Shown piece by piece: positions 1,731-17,543 of a DNA stretch of 25,274 nucleotides. The translations under genes and the position numbers were made by a program. Source of the DNA: Kofleriaceae bacterium (GTDB taxonomy: Bacteria > Myxococcota_A > Polyangia > Haliangiales > Haliangiaceae); NCBI GenBank assembly GCA_016763395.1, contig JAESTW010000877.1, forward strand, positions 1-25,274. Reading direction: 5' to 3'. Below the pieces are notes generated by a model. That model worked only from the letters and a program-made list of their open reading frames with translations, was not told the DNA's origin and did no database searches. Every line of letters starts with the position of its first letter. The stretch's first letter is position 1.

Positions 1731-2045
1731 ATGTACGCTGTAATTCAAACAGGCGGTAAACAGTACCGTGTAGAACCCGGCCAAACCCTTAGCGTGGAAA
1801 AACTTCCAGGCGAGCTTGGCGAAAACATCGAATTTGGTGAGGTGCTCCTCGTCGCTGGCGAAGACTCTGTCTCCGTCGGTAAGCCAACAGTAGCAGGCGC
1901 GAAAGTGACTGCTGAGATCGTTGAGCATGGCAAAGACAAAAAAGTCATTGTCTACAAATTCCAAAGACGACAGAACTATCGACGTCGTTATGGACATCGA
2001 CAGGCTTTCACCTCAATCAAAATCAACGAGGTTGTAGCTCCTTAA
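1731..2045 (+). CDS. rplU: 50S ribosomal protein L21
   Basis: [15 protein letters not shown]-terminus and [13 protein letters not shown]-terminal motif; 104 aa. Confidence 0.99.
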
Positions 2046-2076
2046 GGGGAGTTGCAGCACTTATAAAAGGCTCGCA

Positions 2077-2337
2077 ATGGCACATAAAAAAGGACAAGGT
2101 TCCACACGGAACGGTCGCGACTCCAACCCCAAATACCGTGGCGTTAAGCGCTTCGGTGGCCAGGTTGTAAGCGCAGGTAGCATTCTGGTTCGCCAGTGTG
2201 GTACCAAAGTGTACGCCGGCAAGAACGTCGGAACAGGCAAAGACTGGACACTGTTCGCTCTTTGTGACGGAACGGTGGAGTTCCAGCGACAAGGTCGCAG
2301 CAAGAAGCGCATCACAATTGTGCCTCTTGAGAACTAG
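2077..2337 (+). CDS. rpmA: 50S ribosomal protein L27
   Basis: [23 protein letters not shown] and DWTLFAL motifs. It follows rplU directly, with no prp gene and no N-terminal extension. Confidence 0.99.
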
Positions 2338-2441
2338 TTCAACTGGGCTAGTCCAACTGGGCTAATCCAACTGGGCTAATCCAACTGGGCTGTTCCAAAG
2401 ACTAGTCTTCCAAGGCTGGTCTTCCAGCTAATCTTCGTGAC
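2335..2441 (+). repeat. Decaying 14-bp tandem repeat array, consensus TA(G/A)T(C/T)CAACTGGGC
   Basis: Near-identical units at 2335-2348, 2349-2362, 2363-2376 and 2377-2390. Degenerate 12-14 nt units follow at 2391-2402, 2403-2416, 2417-2428 and 2429-2441. Confidence 0.9.
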
Positions 2442-2461
2442 TAGCTACTGAAATCTCAATA

Positions 2462-2512
2462 TTGAGTATGGAAAGGGCAACTCTCGGTTGAGAGTCGTTC
2501 TTTCCAATTCAA
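2462..2512 (+). other. Long imperfect RNA hairpin (about 23 bp stem, GGTT loop)
   Basis: TTGAGT-A-TGGAAAGGGCAACTCTC, loop GGTT (2486-2489), then GAGAGTCGTTCTTTCCA-ATTCAA. It pairs with one A-C mismatch, G-U wobbles and one bulge. Confidence 0.7.
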
Positions 2513-2513
2513 C

Positions 2514-2545
2514 AAAGTCAGTCGTCACTCGACACTGACTTTTTT
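2514..2545 (+). terminator. Intrinsic terminator after rplU-rpmA, just upstream of obgE
   Basis: AAAGTCAGT (2514-2522) pairs perfectly with ACTGACTTT (2534-2542). 11-nt loop; T6 run at 2540-2545. Confidence 0.75.
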
Positions 2546-2583
2546 GTGTTGCCAAAAATCTCCCCTTAAAACTCTAGGCCATC

Positions 2584-3633
2584 ATGCAGTTCATCGATCA
2601 CGTTAAAATTCACGTCAAAGCCGGCAACGGTGGAAATGGCTGTGCTGCTTTTCGACGCGAATCGCATACGCCCAAAGGTGGGCCTTCTGGTGGCGATGGC
2701 GGCAACGGCGGCAACGTCATTCTCATTGCCGATCATCAGCTCTCAACTCTAATCAACTTCCGCTTTCGCCACGAGTTCAAAGCGATTCGTGGAGAAGATG
2801 GCCGGGGTAAAGATCAGTACGGCAAAGGCGGCCCAGATCTGATCCTCAAAGTTCCGCCAGGAACGATGATTTACGATCACGAGTCTGGCGAGCTACTTGC
2901 CGATCTCGCAAAAATTGGCGAAGAGTTCCTTGTTGCCAGTGGCGGACACGGCGGGCGAGGTAACATTCACTTCGCTAGCCCGTGGAATCAGACACCAACA
3001 GAGGCGGAACCGGGAACCCTGGGAGACGAAGTCGATCTCCGTTTGGAGCTCAAACTACTCGCCGACGTGGGCCTTCTGGGCTACCCGAGTGTGGGCAAGA
3101 GCACGTTTATCTCTAAGATTTCCAAAGCGAAGCCCAAAATCGCTGACTATCCATTTACCACCTTGGTGCCTAACCTCGGAGTGGTTCGTCTCGACACCGA
3201 ACGCCACATGGTGGTCGCCGACATTCCTGGACTTATAGAAGGCGCCGCCGATGGCGCTGGACTCGGACACCAGTTTTTACGCCATGTAGAGCGTTGCCGA
3301 ATTTTGGTTCACATCGTGGAAGCCTCTGTTTTTACAGGGCCTGATCGGGATCCGATCGGTGATTTTGACCGCATTAACATTGAGCTTGCCCGCTATGCAC
3401 CCGAACTCTCGGATAAGCCGCAGATTGTCGTGCTCAACAAGATCGATCTGACCGAAACCCGTGATTCTTTGGAGGAAATCGAAGCTGCCTTCAAAGAAAA
3501 GGGGATCTCGCTCGTTACGATGTCTTGCATCACGGGAGACGGGCTCAAATCGTTACTTCAGTCGATGTGGAGCCTCCTCGTAGAGAATCCAAAGCCTGTC
3601 GAGCCTGTTGAGCCCAAAGATTCCAACGTTTAG
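2584..3633 (+). CDS. obgE: Obg/CgtA family GTPase
   Basis: Gly-rich Obg fold (GNGGNGCAAFRRE, GGPSGGDGGNGG). G motifs GYPSVGKST, YPFTTLVPNLG, DIPG and NKID. 349 aa with no OCT domain; typical rplU-rpmA-obg synteny. Confidence 0.98.
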   Translation: MQFIDHVKIHVKAGNGGNGCAAFRRESHTPKGGPSGGDGGNGGNVILIADHQLSTLINFRFRHEFKAIRGEDGRGKDQYGKGGPDLILKVPPGTMIYDHESGELLADLAKIGEEFLVASGGHGGRGNIHFASPWNQTPTEAEPGTLGDEVDLRLELKLLADVGLLGYPSVGKSTFISKISKAKPKIADYPFTTLVPNLGVVRLDTERHMVVADIPGLIEGAADGAGLGHQFLRHVERCRILVHIVEASVFTGPDRDPIGDFDRINIELARYAPELSDKPQIVVLNKIDLTETRDSLEEIEAAFKEKGISLVTMSCITGDGLKSLLQSMWSLLVENPKPVEPVEPKDSNV

Positions 3634-3930: not shown

Positions 3931-4698
3931 ATGCGCAACTTAACTAGCCTATCTCGGAGCAGCTTAGCTGCTATTTTCGCTGTCTTTTTCGCTCTTAGCT
4001 TCGCTCAAGTGGCGAGTGCTCAGCCGGGTGAAGAACCTGGTGGTGGCCCGGACACAACAGCACCAGATGCAACCCCTGAAGAGCCGTTAGGTGATCCGAC
4101 CTCTCCCGAAGACCCTGCAACTGACCCGGGTGAAGTGCCCGCCGCTTCTCCTGAACCAACAACTGTCGGCCCAGAAATTCCCGTTAATCTTCGATTGCGC
4201 CGATTGGAGCAACGCGTACAAGCACTAAAAGAGCGCGCATGGCGAGCCAAAGCACGGGTCGGAATGCTCAAAGAAGCAGTGCTTGGTGGTGGTGTTGGCG
4301 CGCGAGCAAACATCAAACACATCAACAAGATGGGCAACAGCTATCGCCTAATCAAGCTGGTCTACGCTCTCGACGGTGCTCAGGTATTCGCCCGTAGTGA
4401 TGCATCTGGCGCACTTCACAAAGAATCTGAGTTCGACGTACTGACGGGTCCCATTTCACCCGGTAGCCATACCATCAGTGTATTGGCACTTTACCGAGGC
4501 CACGGCTACGGCGTTTTTAAGTACCTCAAGAAGTACAAGTTCACGGTTCGCTCAAGCCATACTTTCACTGCTAGTGAAGGTAAAGGAACCAGCATCAAAG
4601 TTGTCGCGTTTGAACGTGGCGGCGTGACAACTCCTCTGGACAAGCGTCCGGCTTTTGACTTCAAGGTCAATGTCATCGACAGCGGTAAGAGTAAATAA
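3931..4698 (+). CDS. Conserved myxobacterial secreted hypothetical protein, first gene of the Glt-like operon
   Basis: SD GAGGA at 3919-3923. Sec signal peptide ending ASA-Q, acidic Pro-rich linker, coiled-coil LRRLEQRVQALKERAWRAKAR, then a beta-rich domain (YALDGAQVF, YRGHGYGVFKYL, FERGG). Confidence 0.85.
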   Translation: MRNLTSLSRSSLAAIFAVFFALSFAQVASAQPGEEPGGGPDTTAPDATPEEPLGDPTSPEDPATDPGEVPAASPEPTTVGPEIPVNLRLRRLEQRVQALKERAWRAKARVGMLKEAVLGGGVGARANIKHINKMGNSYRLIKLVYALDGAQVFARSDASGALHKESEFDVLTGPISPGSHTISVLALYRGHGYGVFKYLKKYKFTVRSSHTFTASEGKGTSIKVVAFERGGVTTPLDKRPAFDFKVNVIDSGKSK

Positions 4699-4700
4699 CG

Positions 4701-7097
4701 GTGTTTGGTCGCCTACTACTCGCGGCAGCACTTTGCGGCACAACTTTCTCCTTGGCGGAGCGCAATGCGCACGCCGAGTCTCTTGAGAAAATTGCCAAGA
4801 AGCTGATTGGCATTGACGCGGAGATCGGAAACCTGAGTTCCGGTATCCGACGTCCGAAACAGATCGGAAAAGTGGAAACACAAGATCTGGCATCACGCCG
4901 GCTTATCGACGCCCAAGTCAACTTTGGTGTCGGTAACTACGATGATGCTGCGGTTATGCTCTACGATTTTGTCGAGAAGCATCCAACCCATCGTTCATGG
5001 GATGAGGCGCTTTACTACCTGGCCGAATCACTTTTTCAAAAAGGTGACTACGTCGCATCGCGCTCGTACTTCATTCGTCTGGCGAGTGAGCGGGGCAATC
5101 GCAGCAAGTTTTACCAGCAAGCGTTGGAGCGACTGATTGAGCTCACACTGAAGCTCGATGACTCCAAAGATGTCGACAAGTGGCTAACTGCGCTCGACGG
5201 CGTTCCGCAGCAACAGTTGCGCGACTCCGTGCCTTACGTGCGCGGCAAGTACGCTCACTTTCGAGAGCAGTTTGACGAGTCACTCAAGCACTTTGGCATG
5301 GTGCCGAAGACCTCTGAGTACTATTCGCAAGCGCAGTACTTCATGGGCGTCAACTACGTCGCCAAAGGAGAGCTTGGCCTCGCCCTCGACCTATTCAAGA
5401 AACTCGTATTGGTTGGTGGCGAGAGCAAAGAAGCACTTCGTGTTGCCGAGCTTAGCCACATGGTTCTCGGACGTCTCTACTACGAGCGAGATCAACCTTC
5501 GAAAGCAGTCGATGAGTACCTGCGAATTTCTCGGCGCTCTGACCTCTTTGACGAAGCACTATTCGAAGTCACTTGGGTTTACGTTAAAAACAAAGAGTTT
5601 GATAAGGCGCTTCGAGCTTTAGAGCTTCTCGCACTGGCGGACCCAAATTCCCAGCGCATGCCGGACGTTCGTATCCTCGAGGGCAATCTTCGTATTCGCA
5701 AGGCACAGCGAATTGCTATCGATGGCAAAGGCAATAGCAAAGAAGAATACGACCGAGCGATCGAAGTCTTTGACGAAACTCGCAACAACTTTCGCGAGTC
5801 TCACGAAGAGCTCAAAGAAATTATTGCAGAACATGGCGACGCTTCCACATTCTTGCAGCAAATCACTGGCCGAAGCTCGGACACCTTCGATGTTACGTCA
5901 ACCATTCCCGAAGTTGCGGCGGCTTGGCTACGGGAGCAGCCCGAAGTCGCGCGAGTTGTGGATATCGAGACCAACCTCGGACAGATCGAGGCAGAGATCG
6001 CTGAAGCGGAAGCAACGATTGTTCGCCTAGAAGCCGCGATTGACACTCCTTCACGAGTCAACATCTTCCCGAGTTTGGCGCAAAAGCGTATTCGCAGCAC
6101 TGAGATCTTGGATGAAACCGTCAAGCTTCGTGTTGATCTAGCTACTCAAGCGCGGAACCTCGCGGACAAGTACGCTAGTGGTACTCAAAGTGGCCAGCTC
6201 GACAATCTTCGGGCTCAGGTCTTCCAAATTCAAAAGGAAATCAGCGCACTTCCCGACGGTGACTCTAGTGAAGGCGAGAAAATCACCAAGGCGCGGAATC
6301 GCTACACGAAGCTGAGTGAGCGGGCGGCGGAAGTTTCAACGATTATCGATGTAACCGAAGCTCAACTAGTCGCATTGGAAAAATACGTAATCGATCAGGG
6401 CTCTGCGCTCAAGGTCGACGAAATTGAGACATTCAACAACGATCTGAAAACGCTTCGGGCTGTTGTCGATGAGTTGCGTGGTGAACTAAAAAGCATTCGC
6501 AGCGACACCGTCTTGGCCAAAGATCGAGCGGGCACTGGAGACGAGGCTGCATCGAAGCGCAACGCGTTGCGGGCAGATTTGCAGCGCGCACTAGACGCTG
6601 AGCACGGCGCGATGATGAGTACCAGTTCTGCGATGAGCAGTAGTGATCGCGGCAAAATGCAGCAGATTGGTCGTTTGACGACACAGGCCAAGAACGCAGC
6701 CTCAAAACTCAGTCGAGTGAAGGGGACCATCGATAGTATTGTCGATGAGGCTTTGGGCGAAGTTCGTGATGCGCTCTCGGAAGAGAAGGCACATTTGGGC
6801 GCATATCGTCGAGAGTTTTTGAATTACGAACGCGAGTCTCATGAGATTGGCGGCGAAATTCTGGTGCTCAGCTTCCAAAACGTCTCTGCGAAGTTCTACG
6901 ATATTTTAGTACGCTCCGACGTTGGCATCGTCGATGTGGCTTGGTCTCTAAAAGAGGCCGCAGAAACATCTTTGAAACGACTCACTCTCGATCAGGCACG
7001 CGAACGGCGTACTTTGGACTCTGACTTTGCGGACGTAATCCGTGAAATCCGCGAAACCAGAGCGCAAGAGCTCTTCGATCAGGCTGCAGGCAAGTAA
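4701..7097 (+). CDS. Secreted TPR/coiled-coil protein, GltC/NfsC-like
   Basis: 798 aa with GTG start 2 nt after the upstream stop. Signal peptide ends AHA-E. TPR-like helices (ALYYLAESLFQKGDY, AQYFMGVNY, LSHMVLGRLYY, ALFEVTWVY) precede a long coiled-coil C-half. Sits directly upstream of the GltD-like gene. Confidence 0.75.
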   Translation: MFGRLLLAAALCGTTFSLAERNAHAESLEKIAKKLIGIDAEIGNLSSGIRRPKQIGKVETQDLASRRLIDAQVNFGVGNYDDAAVMLYDFVEKHPTHRSWDEALYYLAESLFQKGDYVASRSYFIRLASERGNRSKFYQQALERLIELTLKLDDSKDVDKWLTALDGVPQQQLRDSVPYVRGKYAHFREQFDESLKHFGMVPKTSEYYSQAQYFMGVNYVAKGELGLALDLFKKLVLVGGESKEALRVAELSHMVLGRLYYERDQPSKAVDEYLRISRRSDLFDEALFEVTWVYVKNKEFDKALRALELLALADPNSQRMPDVRILEGNLRIRKAQRIAIDGKGNSKEEYDRAIEVFDETRNNFRESHEELKEIIAEHGDASTFLQQITGRSSDTFDVTSTIPEVAAAWLREQPEVARVVDIETNLGQIEAEIAEAEATIVRLEAAIDTPSRVNIFPSLAQKRIRSTEILDETVKLRVDLATQARNLADKYASGTQSGQLDNLRAQVFQIQKEISALPDGDSSEGEKITKARNRYTKLSERAAEVSTIIDVTEAQLVALEKYVIDQGSALKVDEIETFNNDLKTLRAVVDELRGELKSIRSDTVLAKDRAGTGDEAASKRNALRADLQRALDAEHGAMMSTSSAMSSSDRGKMQQIGRLTTQAKNAASKLSRVKGTIDSIVDEALGEVRDALSEEKAHLGAYRREFLNYERESHEIGGEILVLSFQNVSAKFYDILVRSDVGIVDVAWSLKEAAETSLKRLTLDQARERRTLDSDFADVIREIRETRAQELFDQAAGK

Positions 7098-10000
7098 TGA
7101 ACGCAATTGGCAAAACACTATCTCGTGGCCTGTTTTTCGGGGCTTTGCTCTCGATTGGCTTTGGTGGATCGCAAGGCTTTGCGCAACCCGCTGCCGGACA
7201 ACCTGGCGGCCCAGTCGCTGGACAACCAGGAGGACCCGCCGCTGGACAGCCCGGTGGACCGGCTGCTGGACAACCAGTTGCGCCTCGCATGGGCCCCGGT
7301 TCCAACTTTGGACCGACAGTCCTAACTCCAGAAGAACTGGAGATTCTTGCTGAGGTCGAGCAAGATCTCATCCGATACGAGAAGGCAGCGAATCTACATC
7401 ACAAGCGTGTCCGTATCATATTGGCATCTGAGTACAAAGATCGCAAAGGTCAGCTGGAATCTCGCTACGCCGAGAAAATCGGGAACGCAGAAAAGCAGGA
7501 ACTGGCACGCCGGCTCAGTGCAATCGTACTACTAGAAAAATTCGTACAAGATTATCCAAACCACCAGAAGTTTACGCCCGACGCAATGTTTCGTTTGGCC
7601 GATCTGTATTTGGAGCAAGCGGAGTACGACTTCAACGTCAGCTTCGACGAAGACCTCGATTTTGGCGATGACGATGATGACGACACGTTCCTGGCCTCGG
7701 CAGACTATTCCAAGTCCATCGGAATGTGGGACAAGATTGTCCGTAACTTCCCCAAATATCGGCAGAAGGCCAATACTCTCTATTTACTGGCGTACTATCT
7801 CAAGCAGACTGAGCAAGAGCGTCCGGCATTGCAAATCTTTCGCGGGCTCGTTTGTTCCAACAAGTACGATGCTCTCGCAGAACCAGAACCAGCACCGGAC
7901 ATGGCATTGGCTCGCGCCGCGCTGGGAACGGCGATTCCTGACGACAAGAGCGGGATTTACGAGGGTTGCATTGCACTCTCGGACAACAAAGAGCTTCTGC
8001 AGGATGCTTGGGTTCGCGGCATTGGCGACATCCACTTTCTGACTCCCGGTGAACTTGGCGAAGCCATTGGCGCATACGAAAGAGTAGCGGGCGACGAGCA
8101 GAGCAAGTTCTACGACGAAGCGCTCTACAAACTCGCTTGGTCGTACTACCGCAATGATGATTTCTTGCTGAGTATCGAGGCTTTTGACAAGTCTGTTGTG
8201 TACTCGGACAAGCAAGTAGCAGAAGGCAAAGAAGAACTGGAGCTTCGTGACGAAGCAATTCAGTACATTGCCATTTCGTTTACCGATCCATGGAGCGTGG
8301 ACGAAGATCCAGACCCATCTCGCAGTTGGGATCGGGCGATGGACTTCTACAAAGATCGCTTTGACGAGCCTCATGTCCGGGATGTCTTTATCCAGCTCGG
8401 CGATACCTTCTCAGTGCTCGAGTCGTACTCGCAGGCGTCCGATGCATGGCGTCTAGCGCTCACCAAGTGGCCGCTACACCCGGAGAATCCAGAGATTCAC
8501 CAAAACATTGTAAATGCCTTTGTTGAGCTTGGTGACACCGATTTAGCGAATGAGGAGGCGGGTCGATTGGCGGCTCGTTACGCTCCGGGCACCGAATGGT
8601 ACACCGCCAACGAAACCAATCGCATCGCTATGGAGAACCAGCGGCGCATTGGCGAGCGCATGCTCAAAGCGGCGGCAGAGAATACTCACAAGTCAGCACA
8701 GGCGGCTCGTCAAGATTGGTTGGCGGACTCAACTGAAGAGAACAAGGCGATTTACATCGACCTCTATCTCAAGGCTGGCGCACTCTACGAACGTTTCTTA
8801 AAAGAGAATCCAACGGCAGAGAGCTCATACGAGTTTACCTACCGCTTGGGCGAAGTTCTCTTCTTTGCTGAGCACTACCAAGAGGCCATCCCGCATTACG
8901 TTTGGGTTCGCGACCATCGCGACTTGAGCGAAACGCGCTTCGAGAAGGCAGCTCGCTCCGTGGTTCAGTCCTATCAAAAGGAGCTGGAGAAACAAATTGC
9001 GGACAACACGGTGGTCGAGCCTTCGATTCCGACGATTGATGAACTCTTGGCGATGCCAAAGCCTATCGCTGGCAAGCCTCTGCCGCAGGCCTATGTCGAT
9101 TTGCAAGACAGTCTGGACAAGTACCAGACCATGGTCAACGATCCAGAGACGGCACCCAACATGGGGTACGAGGCTGCTCTGATTTCATTTCGCCATCTTA
9201 ATCTGGCCGACGCAGAAAACCGTTTTCAAGCGACTCTCGACAGGTTTTGCGGAAGCGACCAATCGGTAAAGAGTAAAGACGCTCTCTTGGCAATCTACGA
9301 AGCTCTCGGCGATGACGAGAAGTTCAAAGCGACCAACGAGGCGTTTATCTCTTCCAAGTGCGGAAGTGACGATGATGTTGCGCTGGCGCAAGCACAAAAC
9401 CGCTCTAAAGAGTTTCGTGAAGCTGCTGCTCTCTTCAAAGAGCAGAAGTTTGCCGATGCGGCGATCGCGTTCTATGTCTTTTACAAGACTGCGCCGCCGG
9501 ACGATCCCAACCGTCCGATTGCTCTGTACAATGGAGCGATTGCCTACGACAAAAGCGGTAAGCCCAAGACAGCGGTCTATTTGCTCAAGGAGTTCACCGA
9601 GAATACCAATTCGGCATTCCGTGACAGCGAATACTTCTTACCCGCTCTCTATCTAACAGCGGTTTCGTACTACAAGGCATTCGATTACGACAATGCAGTA
9701 AAAGTCTATTTGGACGTCGTTAAGGCAGCCGCGGACAAGAGTCGCAAGCCACCAGCAGGCGAGCGAACGGCTCCTGAGATGCGTTTGGATGCGCTTTACA
9801 ATGCTGCGAATATCCGAGAACTGGACAGGGTCTACAAAGATCCACGTTCGGCACCCGGAACCGGAGCTGCTTCACTCTTCGAGCGTTATGCATCGCTGGA
9901 AACCGACGGTCGCAAGGCAGATCGAGCTCTCTTTGCAGTGGCTCGCGTTTGGAAAGGGGCCAAGAACCTCCGATTGCAAGAGCGTGCGTATGCGACTTGG

Positions 10001-10693
10001 CGCGGAAAGTACGGCAACCTGGCGATCAACTCGAACGACTATGTCTTTTCCTATTATGACATGGCCAAGCAGTACGAGAAGTCTGGCAATTCTCGGGCGA
10101 CAGCAAAAGCCAAGAAAGCGACGCTGAGCGCTTGGATCAAAGTGGGTAGTCCGAAGGATGCAATCGCTTCAGATTTGGCTGCGGAGTTTGCATTCCAAGA
10201 GGCGGACAAATACTACGACCGGACATTCACTCCCTTTAAAATCAAGCGTTCGCCCAAAACGGAGAAAGAGGCCAAGAAGGTCTTTGCCGATTTGATCCGA
10301 CTTGCGGACAATGCGCAGAAGAAGTTCACTGACATGAACCGCTTCGAAAGTGGACCCTGGTCTTTGGCATCTCTTGTCCGGGTCGGCGATATTCGCTTTT
10401 TCCAGGCATTGAAAATTGCGGAGATTCCGATTCCGAAGGAAATTATCCGACTCGATAACCTATATCCGTCCAAAGATATTCTCATTCAGTACGAGGATAC
10501 GATTGCCAGCTTGGTAAAGCCTCTGGAAGAGCAAGCCAAGATTCAGTGGGAAAAGGTTGTCAACGCAGGCAAGGCGCAACGGCTATCCAACGAGTGGACC
10601 CAACTGGCGCAAGAACGCCTACACGACTTTGTTTCTCAGGACGAATTTCCCGTGCTCCGTACCGAGCTTCGGGAGGGAACGGAGACACCCTAA
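7097..10693 (+). CDS. Large TPR protein, GltD/AgmU/NfsD-like
   Basis: 1198 aa; start overlaps the upstream stop (TAATG). Signal peptide plus many TPR motifs (PDAMFRLADLY, DEALYKLAWSYY, LRDEAIQYIA, IALYNGAIAY). The C-terminal W.LASLVRVGDI...NEWTQLAQERL resembles AgmU-family tails. Confidence 0.8.
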   Translation: MNAIGKTLSRGLFFGALLSIGFGGSQGFAQPAAGQPGGPVAGQPGGPAAGQPGGPAAGQPVAPRMGPGSNFGPTVLTPEELEILAEVEQDLIRYEKAANLHHKRVRIILASEYKDRKGQLESRYAEKIGNAEKQELARRLSAIVLLEKFVQDYPNHQKFTPDAMFRLADLYLEQAEYDFNVSFDEDLDFGDDDDDDTFLASADYSKSIGMWDKIVRNFPKYRQKANTLYLLAYYLKQTEQERPALQIFRGLVCSNKYDALAEPEPAPDMALARAALGTAIPDDKSGIYEGCIALSDNKELLQDAWVRGIGDIHFLTPGELGEAIGAYERVAGDEQSKFYDEALYKLAWSYYRNDDFLLSIEAFDKSVVYSDKQVAEGKEELELRDEAIQYIAISFTDPWSVDEDPDPSRSWDRAMDFYKDRFDEPHVRDVFIQLGDTFSVLESYSQASDAWRLALTKWPLHPENPEIHQNIVNAFVELGDTDLANEEAGRLAARYAPGTEWYTANETNRIAMENQRRIGERMLKAAAENTHKSAQAARQDWLADSTEENKAIYIDLYLKAGALYERFLKENPTAESSYEFTYRLGEVLFFAEHYQEAIPHYVWVRDHRDLSETRFEKAARSVVQSYQKELEKQIADNTVVEPSIPTIDELLAMPKPIAGKPLPQAYVDLQDSLDKYQTMVNDPETAPNMGYEAALISFRHLNLADAENRFQATLDRFCGSDQSVKSKDALLAIYEALGDDEKFKATNEAFISSKCGSDDDVALAQAQNRSKEFREAAALFKEQKFADAAIAFYVFYKTAPPDDPNRPIALYNGAIAYDKSGKPKTAVYLLKEFTENTNSAFRDSEYFLPALYLTAVSYYKAFDYDNAVKVYLDVVKAAADKSRKPPAGERTAPEMRLDALYNAANIRELDRVYKDPRSAPGTGAASLFERYASLETDGRKADRALFAVARVWKGAKNLRLQERAYATWRGKYGNLAINSNDYVFSYYDMAKQYEKSGNSRATAKAKKATLSAWIKVGSPKDAIASDLAAEFAFQEADKYYDRTFTPFKIKRSPKTEKEAKKVFADLIRLADNAQKKFTDMNRFESGPWSLASLVRVGDIRFFQALKIAEIPIPKEIIRLDNLYPSKDILIQYEDTIASLVKPLEEQAKIQWEKVVNAGKAQRLSNEWTQLAQERLHDFVSQDEFPVLRTELREGTETP
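7187..7276 (+). repeat. In-frame 24-bp (8-aa) repeat P(A/V)AGQPGG, about 3.75 copies
   Basis: Units at 7187-7210, 7211-7234, 7235-7258 and partial 7259-7276. Copies differ mostly at synonymous positions. Confidence 0.9.
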
Positions 10694-10695
10694 CG

Positions 10696-11967
10696 ATGAG
10701 TGAATTAGATCCCAGCGAGACATCGCGCGTATTCCTAAGGGTAGAAGGACCATCATCACGCAGAAGTGGCAAGTTTGCAGGGCTCAAGTCGGGCGCTCTG
10801 TGGGCTCTGCTTCTAGCTAGCGCGGGCTCACTTGCAGCATGCGGCGGTGGTGACAAGAAAAAGAAGTCAACTCCCGCTTCGAGCGGAACGGTGAGTGATG
10901 GAACGCCTATGGGACCGGTTGTGGATCCGGCGAATATCGACCCCATTGACGGAATTCCGACGGCAGATCCCAACGATAGGCCACCTGAGCAAACGGAGCC
11001 AAGTGCTCCGAGCGATCCTGACGATCCCGATGTGCCACCTGAGATCAAGCCGCCTGGCTTGGACATCAGCCCAGCGGAAAAGCAGGCGCGAGTGCAATCT
11101 CTGCTGCAAAACGCCACCGCGGCGATCAAAAACAATGCAGATCCAAGCCGAACTATCAGTGAGGCAAAGGCGGCATTGCAGATCGACGAGACCAGTATTG
11201 ACGCGATGGTTCTCTTGGCCCACGGCAATGTAGTCAAGGGCTTCTACGATATGGCCGAAGATGTGCTCATGAAGGCGTTCGAGCGCGGTGGCAAGAGCAA
11301 CAAGAAAGCGTTTTTCTTGCTTGGACTTGTGTATGACAAGACTGAGCGCGAGGACAAGGCTCCTATCGCCTATCAAAACGCGCTCACTCTCGACCCCAAT
11401 TACAAGAGCGCACTGGTCAACCTGGGTGTTAGTCACCTTCGCACCAAGCGCTACCAAGATGCGGTTGTAATCTACGAGCGACTTACATCGAGTCTTGGGC
11501 TCGACCGAGCCGCAGTTTGGACCAACTTAGGCTCCGCGTACCGAGGGCACTCTACTGATTTTGTCTCGGACATTACGCGTCGCAATCAGATGGTACTCAA
11601 GGCAGAGGCTGCGTACAAACACGCAATCAGCAAGGATAAGAACTATCCTAATGCCTACTACAATATGGGCTTGCTCTACTTAGACGCTGATCCATTCCCC
11701 ACCCGGTCTGGTGGAGAACTCGACAGGTTGGTGCGGCTGAAGAACGCCAAAACCTATCTTGACGAGTACCGCCGGCTTCCTAAGGCCGACCAAAAGCTTG
11801 TCGATCAGACAGCGGCAGTGGCACAAAAACTTATCGATCGGGAGCTCAAGCTTCGCAAGAAGCAAGCAGATCGAGAAGCCAGGCGACGTGCTCTAGAAGA
11901 GAAGAAACGCAAACGTGAGGCAGAGGGTGGCGGCGATGATTTTGATAGCGACGAGGGATTTGAGTAA
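10696..11967 (+). CDS. TPR lipoprotein, GltE/AglT/NfsE-like
   Basis: Start moved from 10546 to ATG 10696 (SD GGAGAC at 10681-10686, 2 nt after the upstream stop). Lipobox LAAC-GGG, Pro/Asp linker, TPRs (AFFLLGLVY, ALVNLGVSHL, VWTNLGSAY, AYYNMGLLY) and a charged C-terminal helix. Confidence 0.8.
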   Translation: MSELDPSETSRVFLRVEGPSSRRSGKFAGLKSGALWALLLASAGSLAACGGGDKKKKSTPASSGTVSDGTPMGPVVDPANIDPIDGIPTADPNDRPPEQTEPSAPSDPDDPDVPPEIKPPGLDISPAEKQARVQSLLQNATAAIKNNADPSRTISEAKAALQIDETSIDAMVLLAHGNVVKGFYDMAEDVLMKAFERGGKSNKKAFFLLGLVYDKTEREDKAPIAYQNALTLDPNYKSALVNLGVSHLRTKRYQDAVVIYERLTSSLGLDRAAVWTNLGSAYRGHSTDFVSDITRRNQMVLKAEAAYKHAISKDKNYPNAYYNMGLLYLDADPFPTRSGGELDRLVRLKNAKTYLDEYRRLPKADQKLVDQTAAVAQKLIDRELKLRKKQADREARRRALEEKKRKREAEGGGDDFDSDEGFE

Positions 11968-12315
11968 ATGAAGTCTAAACGATCAAATAGTCTAAGTCGC
12001 ATAGTCGGGTATGTCGCCATGACGGCGGCGCTGCTGATGGGTACTTCTCTAGTCTCTTCAGATATCGCTCATGCTGATAAATGTTCTGATAGGCAGGACG
12101 AGGCGGACAACGGTGGCAAGAACTACAAAACAGTTATTGGCCCGGACGGACGCAAGGTTTTTGTGATTCAAAAGGCATTTGTGGTTTGCGGGACCGTGCC
12201 CAGACCCAATGTGATCTACGTCTTGCAGGCAACTGCAATTAACTACGAGTGGGAAAACCTCAAGCAGGATTTCATGCCACTAATTCGCAAATCAGTAAAG
12301 AAATGGCCGTTCTAG
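11968..12315 (+). CDS. Small secreted protein, GltF/CglF/NfsF-like
   Basis: 115 aa with signal peptide ending AHA-D. The C-terminal RPNVIYVL...QDFMPLIRKSVKKWPF resembles GltF-like small proteins. Lies between the GltE-like and GltG-like genes. Confidence 0.75.
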   Translation: MKSKRSNSLSRIVGYVAMTAALLMGTSLVSSDIAHADKCSDRQDEADNGGKNYKTVIGPDGRKVFVIQKAFVVCGTVPRPNVIYVLQATAINYEWENLKQDFMPLIRKSVKKWPF

Positions 12316-13736
12316 TGGGAAAGAGTACGAAAAGACAGCCGGGAAAAGGGGCTCAGCAGGGGCCAGCACCTAGAATTCTCCGTATCGGAATTGTTCTGGG
12401 CGGCAACATTATCGAAGAACGCCTCGTTCGCAAGCGCGAGACCGTGACGATTGGCCAGAGTGCGGCCAATACCTTTGCGGTTCCGATTGAGGGATTGCCA
12501 AAGACGCTTCCGATTTTTGAACTCGTTGACGGTCGATACCATCTGCACTTCCAGGACAACATGGACGGCAGGATCTCTGCTGGCGGAGCGGTTCGGACAA
12601 TTTCGCAACTGAAGCAAGACGGAGCTACCAAGCGCGGCACCGATTGGGTGTACCCGCTCGACGACAAAGCCCGCGGAAAAATTTCCGTAGGCGCGATGAC
12701 CTTGCTCTTTCAATTCGTCACGCCTCCACCACTTCAGCCTCGACCAAGATTGCCCGCTTCGGTGCGCGGTACCTTGGCAGATCGTATCGAGCCACGGCTG
12801 GCAATCATTCTCAGCCTATCTATTCTGACCCACTTTTCTGTCGGTCTGTGGGCATACACGCAAGACAAAGTTATCGAGCGTCCAGCGGAGCGTATCGCTC
12901 GGACATATTCTGTTGATCAATATGTAGAGCCTCCACCGCCTGAACCCATTGTGGCCGAGCCGGAGGAGGGGGATACCACTGAAGCTGGTGGCTCAGACGT
13001 TGTCGAGCCGAAAACTCCAACCAAGGTTCGCACTCCCAAAGAAAATACTGGTGGTGGTGAGACAACCCCCAATGAGGGCGGTAGCAACGACGGTTCGCCG
13101 GACGAAGCTGCTGTCGCCGAAGCAATTCAGAATACCGCGGTGGTCTCTGTACTAACTGGCCTCGGCGGACCCAATGGCGCGTTCAGTAAGATGAGCGGTA
13201 CCGACCAGGGCGCGAGTTTGGACAAGTCAATTGCGCACGCAAAAGGCAAGGCTACTGCCACCAACGGAACCGGTACCGAGCGTCAGCGTGGTCAGAACAC
13301 CGGAAAAATTGGTACAGACAAAGGCACTAAGGTCGGTGGTCCTACGGGCACAGACGGCGGCGGCGGCGGCGGTCCGAAACAAGAAGAGAAGATCGTATCG
13401 AAGCTCAAGCTCGGCAGAGCGGATGATCTGAGTCTTAGTGACCTGGACCCGAACGCAGTTGCCAAGCGAATTCGTGGCAAGTACCTCTCTGGTATCAAGC
13501 GTTGTCACCAACGTGCACTGAAGATCGATCCTCGGGCTCAAGGTAAAGTCACAATACGCTTTACGGTTGGACCTACCGGACGCGTGACCAGAGCCACGGT
13601 AAAGGGCTTCAGCGCAACTGTTGATGCATGCATCAAGGGGCAAGCTTCCAAGTGGCGCTTCTCTGCACCAAAGGATGAGGGCAAGCCGACCAGCGCGGAC
13701 TTCTCGATTCCACTCTTGCTCAAGCCCGGCGCATAA
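12315..13736 (+). CDS. GltG/PglI-like protein: N-terminal cytoplasmic beta domain, one TM helix, TonB/TolA-like C-terminal domain (AgmX/PglI type)
   Basis: Probable GTG start overlaps the upstream TAG (alternative ATG 12303). Beta-rich LRIGIVLGG..EERLV domain; TM 12798-12857 with S-x3-H (SILTH); long Gly/Thr/Pro linker; C-terminal IKRCHQRALKIDPRAQGKVTIRFTVGPTGRV...WRF. Confidence 0.85.
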   Translation: MGKSTKRQPGKGAQQGPAPRILRIGIVLGGNIIEERLVRKRETVTIGQSAANTFAVPIEGLPKTLPIFELVDGRYHLHFQDNMDGRISAGGAVRTISQLKQDGATKRGTDWVYPLDDKARGKISVGAMTLLFQFVTPPPLQPRPRLPASVRGTLADRIEPRLAIILSLSILTHFSVGLWAYTQDKVIERPAERIARTYSVDQYVEPPPPEPIVAEPEEGDTTEAGGSDVVEPKTPTKVRTPKENTGGGETTPNEGGSNDGSPDEAAVAEAIQNTAVVSVLTGLGGPNGAFSKMSGTDQGASLDKSIAHAKGKATATNGTGTERQRGQNTGKIGTDKGTKVGGPTGTDGGGGGGPKQEEKIVSKLKLGRADDLSLSDLDPNAVAKRIRGKYLSGIKRCHQRALKIDPRAQGKVTIRFTVGPTGRVTRATVKGFSATVDACIKGQASKWRFSAPKDEGKPTSADFSIPLLLKPGA

Positions 13737-13777
13737 CGCTCAGGTACAAATCACAGAGTCTGTGAAAACAGCTACAA

Positions 13778-13808
13778 AGAAAGCATCCACAAACGTGGGT
13801 GCTTTTTT
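13778..13808 (+). terminator. Intrinsic terminator closing the Glt-like operon
   Basis: AAAGCATCCAC, loop AAAC, GTGGGTGCTTT (11-bp stem with one G-U pair); T6 at 13803-13808. A small upstream hairpin TCACAG-AGT-CTGTGA lies at 13751-13765. Confidence 0.85.
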
Positions 13809-13865: not shown

Positions 13866-14783
13866 ATGCGTAGTTGGGCAAGTCTGATGGTTGTAGGTCT
13901 CAGTGCTTGCGCTTTTGACACCAGTAATTACGCTGGCCCGAGCGATGGCGGCACGCAAACACCCATAGCCGTTGATTCTGCGCCCATCAATGCAATAGAT
14001 GCAGTAACAGCGATCGATAGTGGACCGCCGCCAGCTGCATGTTCGCTCTACGGTACTGAGAATACTCCCATTGCCTTTCTTGGCCAAATAAACACATTGA
14101 CTGCTGGCCGGTACTACTTTGCCATAGACGGTAAGACCTTTGAAGGAGAAGTAAGCGTCGATGAGGGGGGCGATTCCTGGCTTATGGTGCTCAACTACTT
14201 GCATCGCTCTGGCAGCAACCCCAATCTCACCGTCTACAGCGATCGATTGCCAGTGCTCTCCGGCGCATCATTGGGTAGCGACGAGAGTGGGACCCTTTTT
14301 TGGGGGCATAGCTCCAATGAACTCTTTGCCTCTTTAGCGGGTGAGGAGCTGCGATTCTTTGGCCTTAGTGGTAATCACAATCGCGTTATGCACTTCCGGA
14401 CAAAGAATGCAGCAACAGTGGACTACTTCAAATCCGGACAGGGGTCGGCACAAGGGTTACGGGGGCAGTTTGAGCCATATACGGATCATACGACTGAACT
14501 GCCCGCCAGTCAGGACAACCGCTACACCAACCAGGGGGACGAGGCACAGACTAACTTTCCCTTCTATCGCTTTGGCTCACGACACTGGGCCATACGTGGG
14601 GGCAGTTACCGATGGGAAGTCGACGATTACAACGGTGGAGCACAACCTGATACCTTGCATCGCATCTGGGTGCGTAGCCAGGCGATTTGTGGCAATGGCT
14701 TGGTTGAGGGGAATGAGGTCTGCGACGACGGCAACCAGCTGTCCGGTGATGGCTGCGGCTGTTGTATCGACGAAGGCAACTGA
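13866..14783 (+). CDS. Lipoprotein with a fibrinogen-like (FReD-like) domain and one C-terminal Myxococcus cysteine-rich repeat
   Basis: Lipobox LSAC. YYFAIDGKTFEGEVSVDEGGDSWLMV resembles G.Y..YCDM..GGGW.LV, and the domain ends in HRIWVR. The tail ICGNGLVEGNEVCDDGNQLSGDGC matches the CGdG...EeCDDGN..sGDGC repeat. Confidence 0.75.
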   Translation: MRSWASLMVVGLSACAFDTSNYAGPSDGGTQTPIAVDSAPINAIDAVTAIDSGPPPAACSLYGTENTPIAFLGQINTLTAGRYYFAIDGKTFEGEVSVDEGGDSWLMVLNYLHRSGSNPNLTVYSDRLPVLSGASLGSDESGTLFWGHSSNELFASLAGEELRFFGLSGNHNRVMHFRTKNAATVDYFKSGQGSAQGLRGQFEPYTDHTTELPASQDNRYTNQGDEAQTNFPFYRFGSRHWAIRGGSYRWEVDDYNGGAQPDTLHRIWVRSQAICGNGLVEGNEVCDDGNQLSGDGCGCCIDEGN

Positions 14784-14819
14784 ATGCCGAAGCGATATGG
14801 TGCTCTAAGGAAACTCTTA

Positions 14820-15284
14820 CTAGGCAGCTTGCAGCGACGACTCTAGGCGCACTACCGCTTGCGGCGCAGTGCTGCGTCCGCGGCTCCATCGAATCATGAC
14901 CGGATTGCCGATGAAGTCGAAACCGACCTTGCATTCGTCTTCGGCGCTGACGTGTTCTACCCAGGATACCTTGACTCGAAAGAGGTAGCTCTGGTTTTCA
15001 CAAGCGTCATCGAGGCGCAAGCCCATGGTCCCACTTGGCAACGCGCCGGGGGCATTGGTGCATACAACTCCGTGTTGCGCGATACGAATTACTCGTATGC
15101 GGTGGTCAACTGTGTTGGTCGTAAGAACTCCACTTATGGGAGCTGATAGGGGCAAGGATGCCTGAGATTCTAGTCCGGCTCCCAAGACCTCCATTGCCAA
15201 CGCCTCGCTTATGTTGAGCTTAGCGCCAGCTTCTCTCAGTTGTTGAAGCTTTCGATACTGATAGATTTGGGTTAAACAACTCAT
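14820..15284 (-). CDS. PilZ-like domain protein with degenerate motifs
   Basis: 154 aa. An N-terminal helical segment precedes a beta-barrel pattern (IRVIRIAQHGVVC, LRLDD, YLFRVKVSWV, VGFDFIG). It fills the gap between two plus-strand genes and has a sigma54 motif just upstream. Confidence 0.7.
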   Translation of the reverse strand: MSCLTQIYQYRKLQQLREAGAKLNISEALAMEVLGAGLESQASLPLSAPISGVLTTNTVDHRIRVIRIAQHGVVCTNAPGALPSGTMGLRLDDACENQSYLFRVKVSWVEHVSAEDECKVGFDFIGNPVMIRWSRGRSTAPQAVVRLESSLQAA

Positions 15285-15296
15285 GCTCTCAGTAAA

Positions 15297-15312
15297 AGCA
15301 AGTGCTAGGCCA
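15297..15312 (-). promoter_or_regulatory. sigma54 (-24/-12) promoter for the PilZ-like gene
   Basis: Minus strand reads TGGCCTAGCACTTGCT, i.e. TGGC-N7-TTGCT with exact GG-N10-GC spacing, 13 nt upstream of ATG 15284. Confidence 0.7.
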
Positions 15313-15521
15313 AGACACTAGTTTAAGCTAAGTGATTGAAATTAGTAGAAATGGCTGGTTCGAATTCGGAAAAACGCACAGTCAGTGTTGCCATCTTGAC
15401 ACGATATTGCGTGGTTTGTGAACGGAATGTCGCGAATCAAATGGCAGGTGATCTGCGCCACATGAGCCCAGTGGCTTCTTATAGCTTGGGCAATTGTGCT
15501 AGCGTTATGTGTATGAGCCCG

Positions 15522-16250
15522 ATGTACTGGATCCGTATTTCTGCAGCCGCCTGCTTTTTAGTGGCGTGCGGAGGAGGCGAGACACCTGTCATCGATGCCG
15601 GGATCCCGGACGCAATGCCCGACGCCATGGCACCTGACGCGACTGTGGCGCTTGGCCCAATGTACTCAGGAGTGGTCAACGCCGGCGCTGGTCCACTGCC
15701 CGGAGCCACCATCGAGCTTAGCTACTCAGGAGGCACGGTCAATATCACGACAAGCGATACGGGAGAATTCTCAATTCGGCTGCCCTTAGTCGACACAGAC
15801 TACCAAGTGTACATCCCGGGGCCGGACGGATTTTGGTCACACTCGTCGTGGCTGCTCGATGTGTCCGAAGCAGGGCGTACCGGTCTTGAGTATGCGCTGG
15901 CTGATGACCCTTTGTTTGAGGGGCTGAGTTCAGTCTTAGGGCTACCGAGTATTGAAAAAACGGTCGGTGTCGTGAGCCTGGACATCCGCGTTGGAAATCT
16001 CGAGCAACAAGGCCTGGGGTTTACCTTTGATACTCCCGCGGATCCCATCTTTAGCTTTATTGATGGCATGCCGCTAGAGACGCCACACTTATTGGGCATT
16101 GGCGACACCGTGCTCATATTCACCAATATCGCACCACAAACGCTAATACCCGCAATCCCCAATATGGGGGCTACGGGGTGTAGGCAACTTGCGCCAGCCT
16201 CGATTGTCCGGGCTGGTTCTGTGTTGACCTTGGTCGTCGACTGTAACTAG
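15522..16250 (+). CDS. Lipoprotein with a carboxypeptidase-regulatory-like beta-sandwich domain
   Basis: Likely start ATG 15522 (alternatives 15513, 15507), not 15336. Lipobox LVAC-GGG, PDA x3 linker, and a GVVNAGAGPLPGATIEL...TTSDTGEFSI pattern. Confidence 0.7.
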   Translation: MYWIRISAAACFLVACGGGETPVIDAGIPDAMPDAMAPDATVALGPMYSGVVNAGAGPLPGATIELSYSGGTVNITTSDTGEFSIRLPLVDTDYQVYIPGPDGFWSHSSWLLDVSEAGRTGLEYALADDPLFEGLSSVLGLPSIEKTVGVVSLDIRVGNLEQQGLGFTFDTPADPIFSFIDGMPLETPHLLGIGDTVLIFTNIAPQTLIPAIPNMGATGCRQLAPASIVRAGSVLTLVVDCN

Positions 16251-16266
16251 CTACAGTCCGAATCAG

Positions 16267-16788
16267 CTAGAACGTGCACTCGTAGTTGGCGGACACGGAC
16301 AGAAAGGCTGTGACGTGGGCTTCGAGTTCTTCGAGTAGTGGGTTTTGCCTGCTGTGAAAGACTCGTTCGGCAGCCTGGGCTGTGTCCGGGTCGAGCATCG
16401 TGAGCATGCCTACTTGGTGAGCGCGAATCTCGACACGCAATTCTTGGAGCGCGATTAGAGCATCCGAACGTTCCATTGAGTCATGGTCCGTATTGAGACA
16501 TGCGGCTAGAGTTTCTAGATGGAATTGCATGTCGTTGAGAGAGGTAAAGCTATCATTGTGAAAGGTAAGTTCATCAATGGCAATATCTCGAAGTTCGCCT
16601 CGTAACATCACATTTTCTCTGTGCGTGTCTGCAAGACCAACGAGAATATCACGTGATTTGCCAAGTTCGGTGACAGTGTTCACCGCGTCCTCAGTCGGTG
16701 GAAGCTCTTCGGGGTCGTCGGCGCATCCTATGAGACATAGGGAAAGTCCGGCAGCGAGTACAAAATTTCTGGTTACTAGGTAGGTCAT
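16267..16788 (-). CDS. Predicted all-helical lipoprotein of unknown function
   Basis: Likely start ATG 16788 (MTYLVTRNFVLAAGLSLCLIGC-ADD). Lipobox LIGC followed by amphipathic helical segments; divergent from wza. Confidence 0.7.
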   Translation of the reverse strand: MTYLVTRNFVLAAGLSLCLIGCADDPEELPPTEDAVNTVTELGKSRDILVGLADTHRENVMLRGELRDIAIDELTFHNDSFTSLNDMQFHLETLAACLNTDHDSMERSDALIALQELRVEIRAHQVGMLTMLDPDTAQAAERVFHSRQNPLLEELEAHVTAFLSVSANYECTF

Positions 16789-16827
16789 GGTATGTCCAAT
16801 CGGCAAAATTGAGTGTGTATGCACCCA

Positions 16828-16843
16828 AGCAATACGGTGGCCT
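16828..16843 (-). promoter_or_regulatory. Possible sigma54-like promoter for the helical lipoprotein gene
   Basis: Minus strand reads AGGCCACCGTATTGCT with correct GG-N10-GC spacing and TTGCT, but has A instead of T before GG. Confidence 0.35.
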
Positions 16844-16946
16844 GGGCATAGACTTGATAGTTCCCAGGTTTTTTCTTGTGATTCTCTTGAACGACCGCCA
16901 GAGAGTTGACGACTATGATGGGCGAGATACCCTTGCTTGGCTCAAC

Positions 16947-17543
16947 ATGATCGTTTATTTCCGCCTACTTATTGTACTTCTCCTCATCCCACTTGCGTCC
17001 GCGTGTGGAGATCCCCCCGCGAGTGTGTATCCAGATCAGCAGGCGTATCAGGAGGACACAACCATAGGTGTAGGTGATGTTTTTGACGTTCGAGTCTTTC
17101 AACACAAAGAGATGAGCGCGACATATTCCACCAGTGCAGAGGGCAGTATTTCCTTCCCCTTAATAGGCAAGGTCATGGTCTCCGGCAAAACCCCAGCGGC
17201 CGTAGAAGAAGAGATTCAATCCCGACTTGCCGATGGCTACTTGGTGAACCCGCAAGTGTCGGTGTTTGTCAAAGAGTACAAGAGTAAGAAATTGTCTATA
17301 TTCGGACAAGTCAGGAAGCCCGGCACCTTGGCCTACACGGAGGGCATGACAATTATCGAGGCGATTTCGCAAGCGGGTGGCTTTACCGGAATGGCGCGCA
17401 AGAATGCAGTCACTGTGACTCGTGAGCTTGATGGCAAAAAGTCGAAGTATACGATTCCCGTAGACAAAATCGGACGCGGCTCAGCTGGGAACTTTAACTT
17501 GCGTCCGGGCGATGTAGTCTTTGTGCCCGAGCGACTTTTTTGA
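16947..17543 (+). CDS. wza: Short OPX/Wza-family polysaccharide export lipoprotein (Poly_export plus one SLBB domain, no C-terminal membrane helix)
   Basis: Likely start ATG 16947, giving 198 aa. Lipobox ASAC; IGVGDVFDVRVF, GSISFPLIG, YLVNPQVSVFV, IFGQVRKPG, EAISQAGGF; ends at LRPGDVVFVPERLF. Confidence 0.9.
   Translation: MIVYFRLLIVLLLIPLASACGDPPASVYPDQQAYQEDTTIGVGDVFDVRVFQHKEMSATYSTSAEGSISFPLIGKVMVSGKTPAAVEEEIQSRLADGYLVNPQVSVFVKEYKSKKLSIFGQVRKPGTLAYTEGMTIIEAISQAGGFTGMARKNAVTVTRELDGKKSKYTIPVDKIGRGSAGNFNLRPGDVVFVPERLF

Follow-up and report, generated by a model that had tools for sequence, protein, structure and literature searches.

Organization of the locus

The window, that is, the whole stretch of DNA analyzed here, corresponds to contig C746 (25 kb) of a fragmented Kofleriaceae genome (G000; 918 contigs, 5.9 Mb, 83% complete, ~53% GC). 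At positions 3931-13736 it carries an operon of six co-directional plus-strand genes, p1 to p6, in which a gene for a secreted protein is followed by Glt-like genes in the order C, D, E, F, and G, known from the gliding (Glt) and spore-coat (Nfs) machines of Myxococcus xanthus. A sequence-only reading had described this operon as a self-contained trans-envelope machine of unassigned function. The gene products, the distribution of the cluster, and its surroundings were analyzed (Table 1). The cluster is a further copy of a known kind and not a new kind of machine.

The gene junctions from p1 to p5 measure +2, -1, +2, and 0 nt. The start of p6 is uncertain (ATG at 12303 or an alternative GTG at 12249), and with the ATG the p5/p6 junction becomes a 13-nt overlap. 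The coupling by gaps of -1 to 2 nt that had been claimed for the whole operon was thus found at four of the five junctions and not at p5/p6. The closing of the unit by a single terminator was borne out: a hairpin followed by a U-run has a folding free energy of -19.2 kcal/mol (z -5.6), and none of 200 shuffles was equally stable. This terminator was not picked up by a simple pattern scan, and a promoter scan of the window gave no signal above chance. In agreement with the sequence-only reading, all six products are predicted to be exported or membrane-anchored. Sec-type signal peptides were legible in p1, p2, p3, and p5, a lipobox in p4, and a transmembrane (TM) segment in p6. The signal-peptide, lipobox, and TM calls were made by reading the sequences and by a Kyte-Doolittle hydropathy scan.

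Table 1. Features of the window and Glt-like sets on other contigs of the same genome. TPR, tetratricopeptide repeat; ORF, open reading frame; OPX, outer-membrane polysaccharide export
Feature	Position	Strand	Description
rplU-rpmA-obg	1731..3633	+	Conserved upstream neighbors
p1	3931..4698	+	255 aa; secreted protein; conserved first gene of the cluster, no Glt name
p2	4701..7097	+	798 aa; GltC-like periplasmic TPR protein
p3	7097..10693	+	1198 aa; GltD-like periplasmic TPR scaffold
p4	10696..11967	+	423 aa; GltE-like TPR lipoprotein
p5	11968..12315	+	115 aa; small secreted protein, GltF position
p6	12303..13736	+	477 aa; GltG-like TonB/TolA-type transducer
Intrinsic terminator	13777..13808	+	Hairpin, then U-run; closes the six-gene unit
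DUF4215 protein	13866-14783		Secreted Cys-rich protein; between operon and Wza
CarboxypepD_reg-like protein	15336-16250		Protein with CarboxypepD_reg-like domain; between operon and Wza
Two small ORFs	within 13866-16824	-	Between operon and Wza
Wza	16809..17543	+	WzaB-type class-3 OPX protein, short, without outer-membrane helix; 3 kb downstream of the operon
Wzy_C-TPR	17540-19870		After Wza; Pfam
Gmd, Wzc, WbpM-like gene	Wzc, 20960-23146		After Wzy_C-TPR; Pfam
Glt-like set	contig C532		GltC (321 bits), then D-like gene cut at the contig end
Glt-like set	contig C151		D-like C-terminus, GltE (111 bits), small ORF, GltG (134 bits), outer-membrane beta-barrel
Glt-like set	contig C348		GltG (254 bits), TPR gene, 3922-aa ORF
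Glt-like set	contig C733		C-like and D-like genes

Features of the C- to G-like proteins

TPR families of Pfam matched p2, p3, and p4. The NCBIfam GltC model (NF033756) matched p2 with 78.7 bits (cut-off 450), the match being confined to residues 60-315, and the ~400 aa of C-terminal extension beyond this GltC-like part read as coiled-coil-like. The tol_pal_ybgF TPR model matched p2 with 52 bits and p3 with 73 bits, both under its cut-off of 90, and p2 also matched BamD/YfiO weakly. For p3, which contains YbgF/CpoB-type TPR repeats, at least 420 homologues were found at E <= 1e-5 (8000 candidates scored). Among the 120 matches listed, nearly all were full-length with 41-87% identity, and the closest relatives of the window were metagenome-assembled genomes labelled Kofleriaceae, Haliangium, or Myxococcales. 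In tblastn searches with p3, cross-class orthologues scored ~130-423 bits compared with 84 bits for the best paralogue of the same genome. The lipoprotein p4 matched the GltE model (NF033758) with 30.1 bits (cut-off 225) and the Pfam families TPR_1/2/8/11/17; its lipobox, SLAAC, is followed by a Lys-rich and Pro-rich linker.

An alignment of p5 homologues revealed the conserved C-terminal motif VCGKVPRP..YVLQ..INYEWE.LKQDF.P....APF. In an hhalign comparison with the ORF in the F position of the paralogous cluster on C151, the same motif was aligned with a probability of 46% and an E value of 2e-4.

The p6 protein consists of a cytoplasmic N-terminal domain of ~165 aa, one TM segment (hydrophobic residues 166-184), a Pro/Gly-rich linker, and a TonB_C / AgmX-PglI tail. 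It thereby has the TM anchor, the Pro-rich linker, and the C-terminal TonB_C fold of a TonB/TolA-type transducer. TonB_C was matched with 27.2 bits in Pfam (cut-off 24.6) and 27.2 bits for TIGR01352 (cut-off 27.1), and the myxo_SS_tail model NF033768 with 56 bits (cut-off 40). The GltG model (NF033760) gave 66.1 bits (cut-off 650). As this match covers model positions 196-635 only, the N-terminal part, annotated as FHA in Glt-proper GltG, is missing from p6. The matches of the GltC, GltE, and GltG/GltJ models to p2, p4, and p6, all below the cut-offs, agree with the earlier assignment of the genes as a Glt/Nfs-like C-D-E-F-G set. Second copies of p1 to p5 were not detected in the genome. An orphan p6 paralogue with 53% identity over 426 aa lies at the edge of contig C432 (L124:2523-3794, minus strand).

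When the p6 tail was modeled in complex with p5, the score was 0.39, compared with 0.01 for the best control. Of 80 solved complexes, 58 attained the mark applied, as did 2 of 110 mismatched pairs, and a pass at <= 0.60 is more likely to be false than true unless the contact was probable a priori. The predicted interface joins the last strand of p6 to the conserved hairpin of p5. The model thus lends weak support to a contact between p5 and the p6 tail.

A conserved orthogroup, probably of the G4 type

In essentially all of 80 Haliangiales/Kofleriaceae loci with enough flank, the order p1-C-D-E-F-G was kept. Because the same six genes occur in the same order across related loci, the arrangement is not a product of chance. 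The cluster was found in all 27 genomes examined across the phylum, which represent ~25 families and include Bradymonas sediminis, and it began with p1 in every such locus. These genes form an orthogroup with conserved gene content, and its C-like subunit stands apart from other Glt-like paralogues.

Two sets with this organization were tabulated by Luciano et al. 2011 (Table S3; PMC3169522). Hoch_6494-6498 are listed as C, D, E, F, and G homologues of 823, 1202, 422, 120, and 490 aa, and the genes of the M. xanthus cluster G4 (MXAN_1923 to 1919) encode 809, 1111, 490, 91, and 447 aa. For MXAN_1919-1923 the "homolog to" column was read in reverse, since the listed sizes fit only that way. The sizes of p2 to p6 (Table 1) and the C-D-E-F-G order match both sets with near-identical lengths. 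As in the window, the published clusters lack A/B/H/I/J/K genes, have a short G-like protein that is not annotated with FHA, and contain no motor. The flanks differ, with mglBA beside G4 in M. xanthus and obg here. The six genes very probably belong to a separate G4-type orthogroup. This orthogroup is ancient, single-copy, and distinct from the gliding and spore-coat machines.

Luciano et al. 2011 stated that the function of G4, G5, and M2 was unknown (PMC3169522), and no later function for any of them was found in the literature searched. As a paralogue the operon had not gone unnoticed: judged by order and sizes, the cluster had already been catalogued as Hoch_6494-6498 and G4.

The genes upstream of p1 in the window are gatB, rplU, rpmA, and obg. 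In the 80 related loci the cluster was nearly always located right after rplU-rpmA-obg. The obg gene lay directly 5' of p1 in nearly all Haliangiales loci and in seven distant genomes, the cluster being immediately 3' of rplU-rpmA-obg in the distant loci L094, L095, L096, L108, L115, L116, and L119. This position beside ribosome-associated genes is unusually stable.

Distinction from the gliding and spore-coat sets

The equivalog cut-offs of the GltC, GltE, and GltG models were all missed by wide margins. NF033757 and NF033759, which had been guessed to be GltD and GltF models, were rejected because they represent CglB and TraA. None of five complete genomes reached the GltG cut-off itself, nor did any of 401 genomes sampled from the phylum. 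Genome G000 holds better-scoring Glt-like sets on other contigs (Table 1). Five other genomes have about three GltC-like paralogues each, among which the C-like gene of the conserved cluster invariably scored lowest. As had been noted from the sequence, the window contains no gltA/B/K-, gltH-, gltI-, or gltJ-like genes; a GltA/B-like beta-barrel and the 3922-aa ORF accompany the Glt-like sets on C151 and C348. The Nfs set, the closest relative of Glt, comprises the eight genes nfsA-H, including A/B-type beta-barrel and H-type subunits. It was not matched by the cluster, where only C/D/E/F/G-like genes and p1 are present.

A maximum likelihood tree of 48 C-like proteins was calculated (quick search, unrooted, groups defined by synteny). 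It split 36 synteny-defined orthologues, the window protein and 35 others, from 12 other paralogues on a branch with 100% SH-aLRT support. In this tree, which holds no bona fide Nfs sequence, the window protein lay outside the clade containing the genome's best GltC matches. The low model scores, the better sets elsewhere, and the C-like tree uphold the view that the operon is neither the gliding nor the sporulation set. The branching inside a bona fide Glt or Nfs clade that the sequence-only reading had named as the mark of an ordinary split locus was not seen for the C-like subunit.

An ordinary Glt or Nfs locus, with its remaining genes elsewhere in the genome, could be suspected from the fragmentation of the assembly and from the spread of Glt-like genes over several contigs. 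Separate and better-scoring C, D, E, F, and G genes together with a beta-barrel and the 3922-aa ORF are present on other contigs, however, and the C-like tree separates the window protein from those paralogues with full support. Together with the widely missed cut-offs, this makes a split locus extremely improbable, and it was rejected.

On C348 the 3922-aa ORF (L125:343-12111, minus strand) is located downstream of the genome's best GltG match and a TPR gene. GltI/AgmK of Anaeromyxobacter has 4074-4104 aa (Luciano et al. 2011, Table S3, PMC3169522). Because the ORF recalls GltI/AgmK in size and position, G000 probably also has a Glt-proper gliding set.

The additional subunit p1

The p1 protein is built from a signal peptide, a linker that is acidic and rich in Pro, a single long helix spanning residues 85-117, and a beta-sandwich (residues 124-250). 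Its AF2 model has a mean predicted local distance difference test (pLDDT) score of 78, with ~95 within the sandwich. No Pfam or NCBIfam family matched p1. A fold search of the PDB returned weak transthyretin/Ig-like matches, none of them at E <= 0.001, the top AFDB match is labelled CarboxypepD_reg-like, and the ESM Atlas yielded solely unnamed or mislabelled Myxococcota clusters. Relatives of p1 carry the wrong database label "dihydrolipoamide acetyltransferase." A p1 homologue with 34-76% identity was present 5' of the C-like gene in all loci, and one strong match was obtained in each of five genomes searched. p1 is a conserved sixth subunit that does not appear in earlier listings of the cluster; Table S3 of Luciano et al. 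covers homologues of 14 glt/agl genes only, so p1 was outside its scope.

Three further observations concern p1. The AFDB entry A0A2E3NNV7 is a 693-aa TPR protein with a p1-like beta-sandwich that matches p1 residues 74-246. It may be a natural fusion of p1 to a GltC-like protein, which, if so, would point to joint action of p1 with the C-like protein. In genome G237 a weak second p1-like gene (34 bits; G237:C1:3809693-3810220) lies directly upstream of a GltC-like paralogue of the C733 type, so a p1-like first gene may be common to two of the three paralogue types. Within the window, the CarboxypepD_reg-like label of the ORF at 15336-16250 echoes that of the top AFDB match of p1.

Motor genes

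In 14 of 26 evaluable loci from across the phylum, the F and G genes flank a MotA/ExbB gene followed by two ExbD genes. Profile searches of the window found no motor genes in its cluster, and the motor is also absent from the cluster in the family of the window and in several others. Since in these 14 orthologous loci the motor is embedded, the cluster of the window cannot be called self-contained. The motor is ancestral to the cluster and was displaced in the lineage of the window. In G000, ExbB+ExbD pairs were found on contigs C373 and C711. The C373 motor is 37-44% identical to three embedded motors tested, compared with 32-36% for C711, and all share one clade with 98% support in a MotA/ExbB tree. 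C373 is the best candidate for the displaced motor.

In G167 and G237, two Polyangia genomes whose G4-type cluster has no motor, two MotA/ExbB genes of the Agl-like clade adjoin on opposite strands (G167:C1:933094-934659 and G237:C1:1168938-1170626). Of the pair, one may represent the displaced motor of the G4 type and the second an AglR-like protein.

The ancestral core complex of Luciano et al. 2011 consists of GltC, D, E, and G with AglR, Q, and S, as in Geobacter GM21_0438-0445. The order of these genes (C, D, E, one unlisted locus tag, R, Q, S, G) is the layout found in the 14 clusters with an embedded motor. The function of the Geobacter complex is likewise unknown. The presence of p1 upstream and of x-Wzp-Wza downstream (see below) may set the Myxococcota copies apart from it, and the copy in the window has lost the motor from the cluster.

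Homology to the Glt core and a separate Agl-like motor in many lineages, from the same clade as other Agl-like motors, would also be expected of an alternative surface-motility engine, either a second gliding machine or a focal-adhesion-like transporter. Luciano et al. speculated that expanded core complexes mark gliders (PMC3169522). The same study, however, reported that a polar insertion in MXAN_1922, the gltD homologue of G4, caused no motility defect, and argued that core genes alone are insufficient for motility (PMC3169522). In addition, GltA/B/K/H/I/J-like genes are missing from the cluster, as is the GltG-type FHA domain from p6. A motility engine is accordingly improbable.

Polysaccharide export genes near the cluster

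Beyond the G-like gene, a beta-barrel gene (Wzp) and/or a short class-3 Wza was found within ~6 kb in 21 of 24 loci with enough flank. In most distant loci the complete Wzp-Wza pair comes after G. The layout is a small gene, here called x, followed by Wzp, Wza, and then often Wzc; no Pfam family matched x, which in these other lineages lies between G and Wzp. As most lineages thus have a longer conserved block that ends in a beta-barrel and a class-3 Wza, the description as self-contained fails on this side of the cluster as well.

In the window, Wza had its best PDB match in 9N9A, the crystal structure of M. xanthus sWzaB (E 3.4e-46, 161 bits). The only other Wza paralogue of the genome scored 53 bits against 9N9A. 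Judged by these scores, the window Wza is the WzaB-type copy of this genome. The gene coupled to it encodes a Wzy_C domain (O-antigen ligase/polymerase-like) fused to a TPR tail. The ORFs at 13866-16824 occupy the slot that x and the Wzp beta-barrel hold in other lineages.

The M. xanthus WzaB and WzpB proteins are encoded by MXAN_1915 and MXAN_1916, two genes from G4 (PMC9603273, PMC12819527, PMC3169522), whereas the window has a WzaB-type Wza 3 kb downstream and no Wzp was found there. Islam et al. 2020 described the orphan gene wzaB as contiguous with biosurfactant polysaccharide (BPS) pathway genes in Sandaracinus (PMC7310880). The OPX papers PMC9603273, PMC12819527, and PMC7310880 make no mention of Glt, and Luciano et al. 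2011 (PMC3169522) make no mention of Wza or polysaccharide. The adjacency of G4 and export genes is absent from the literature searched.

The neighborhood also bears on a role in envelope maintenance similar to that of Tol-Pal, in which p6 as a TolA-like protein, together with CpoB/YbgF-like TPR proteins, would anchor or reshape the outer membrane and the adjacency of Wza would be inherited order without function. Like the transducers of Tol-Pal and TonB-ExbBD, p6 is a single-pass inner-membrane protein with a Pro-rich linker and a TonB_C-type tail. In both cases an ExbB/ExbD-type channel is the presumed energizer and the TPR partners are CpoB/YbgF-like; the tol_pal_ybgF matches of p2 and p3, below the cut-off, and the weak BamD/YfiO match of p2 fit such a role. 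The housekeeping neighbors rplU-rpmA-obg in many genomes and the frequent breaks of the Wza link in the order of the window are likewise in line with it. The G-x-Wzp-Wza adjacency is nevertheless kept across classes, in the 21 of 24 loci, and this is hard to explain without selection. M. xanthus moreover has a separate bona fide Tol-Pal system (PMC3169522), and the cluster contains no Pal, TolB, or TonB-dependent receptor genes. Further differences from Tol-Pal and TonB-ExbBD are the great size of the TPR scaffolds (798 and 1198 aa) and the restriction of the small subunits to Myxococcota, and unlike TonB, p6 carries its cytoplasmic domain before the TM segment. A Tol-Pal-like role is therefore considered unlikely.

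Proposed mechanism and implications

For the cluster as a whole, the explanation that we favor, by a modest degree, is a G4-type orthogroup encoding a proton motive force (PMF)-driven, TonB-like/TPR envelope complex associated with BPS-type export. The parts list and its conservation were observed directly; the mechanism outlined here would follow from homology with TonB/TolA and Agl-Glt/Nfs. p6 would act as a TonB/TolA-like inner-membrane transducer energized by an ExbB/ExbD-type proton channel. The genes of this channel lie within the cluster in roughly half of the lineages and would lie elsewhere in this genome. The periplasmic TonB_C-like tail of p6, possibly by clamping the conserved hairpin of p5, would pass force to the TPR scaffold of p2 and p3 and to the outer-membrane TPR lipoprotein p4. 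p1 would be an additional secreted subunit of the complex. The complex may cooperate with the class-3 OPX/beta-barrel pore of a BPS-type Wzx/Wzy pathway and help to secrete, position, or move the polymer, as Agl-Nfs does with spore-coat polymer.

Agl-Nfs is the proposed functional analogue for the cluster, being a Glt-like envelope complex with a TolQR-type motor whose polymer is exported by a class-3 Wza pathway. PMC3858216 describes movement of Wza-exported polymer by Agl-Nfs. A role in BPS-type export is suggested on account of the synteny together with this Nfs precedent, and polysaccharide export or handling is a possible job of the complex, somewhat short of probable. Still more tentative is the specific proposal that the G4-type complex with its own ExbB/ExbD motor, M2-like when displaced, is the PMF-driven partner of a class-3 OPX/Wzp pore and has kept the ancestral core architecture.

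Several points weigh against the explanation that we favor. The orthology with MXAN_1919-1923 and Hoch_6494-6498 is deduced from published sizes, order, and neighbors. The separation tree covers the C-like subunit and is an unrooted quick search with synteny-defined groups, and the homology of p5 to GltF is weak. The MotA/ExbB tree shows C373, C711, and the embedded clade as a three-way split with no branching order. The polysaccharide link is drawn from synteny, for which related genomes are not independent samples. Within the order of the window, Wza follows the cluster in ~10 of 80 loci and Wzp in 2. Homologues of Wzp and x were not found in the window or in the genome, which is 83% complete. 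Finally, the operon is closed by a terminator of its own and is separated from Wza by four unrelated ORFs (13866-16824).

Class-3 OPX systems have no outer-membrane-spanning domain, and how they work across the envelope is a subject of current research. An energized TPR/TonB-like partner would bear on this mechanism. For G4, G5, and M2, and for the wider core complex that gave rise to the gliding and spore-coat machines, Luciano et al. 2011 assigned no function. The p1 subunit, the ancestral but displaced motor, and the phylum-wide adjacency to a WzaB/WzpB-type pore provide a testable function for G4 and M2. With such a partner in view, direct tests of what G4 and M2 do would be feasible in M. 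xanthus and also in Bradymonas sediminis, whose cluster carries both an embedded motor and Wzp-Wza. If the proposal is true, export or movement of surface polysaccharide would be the original role of Glt-like machines, and gliding and spore-coat formation would be later specializations.

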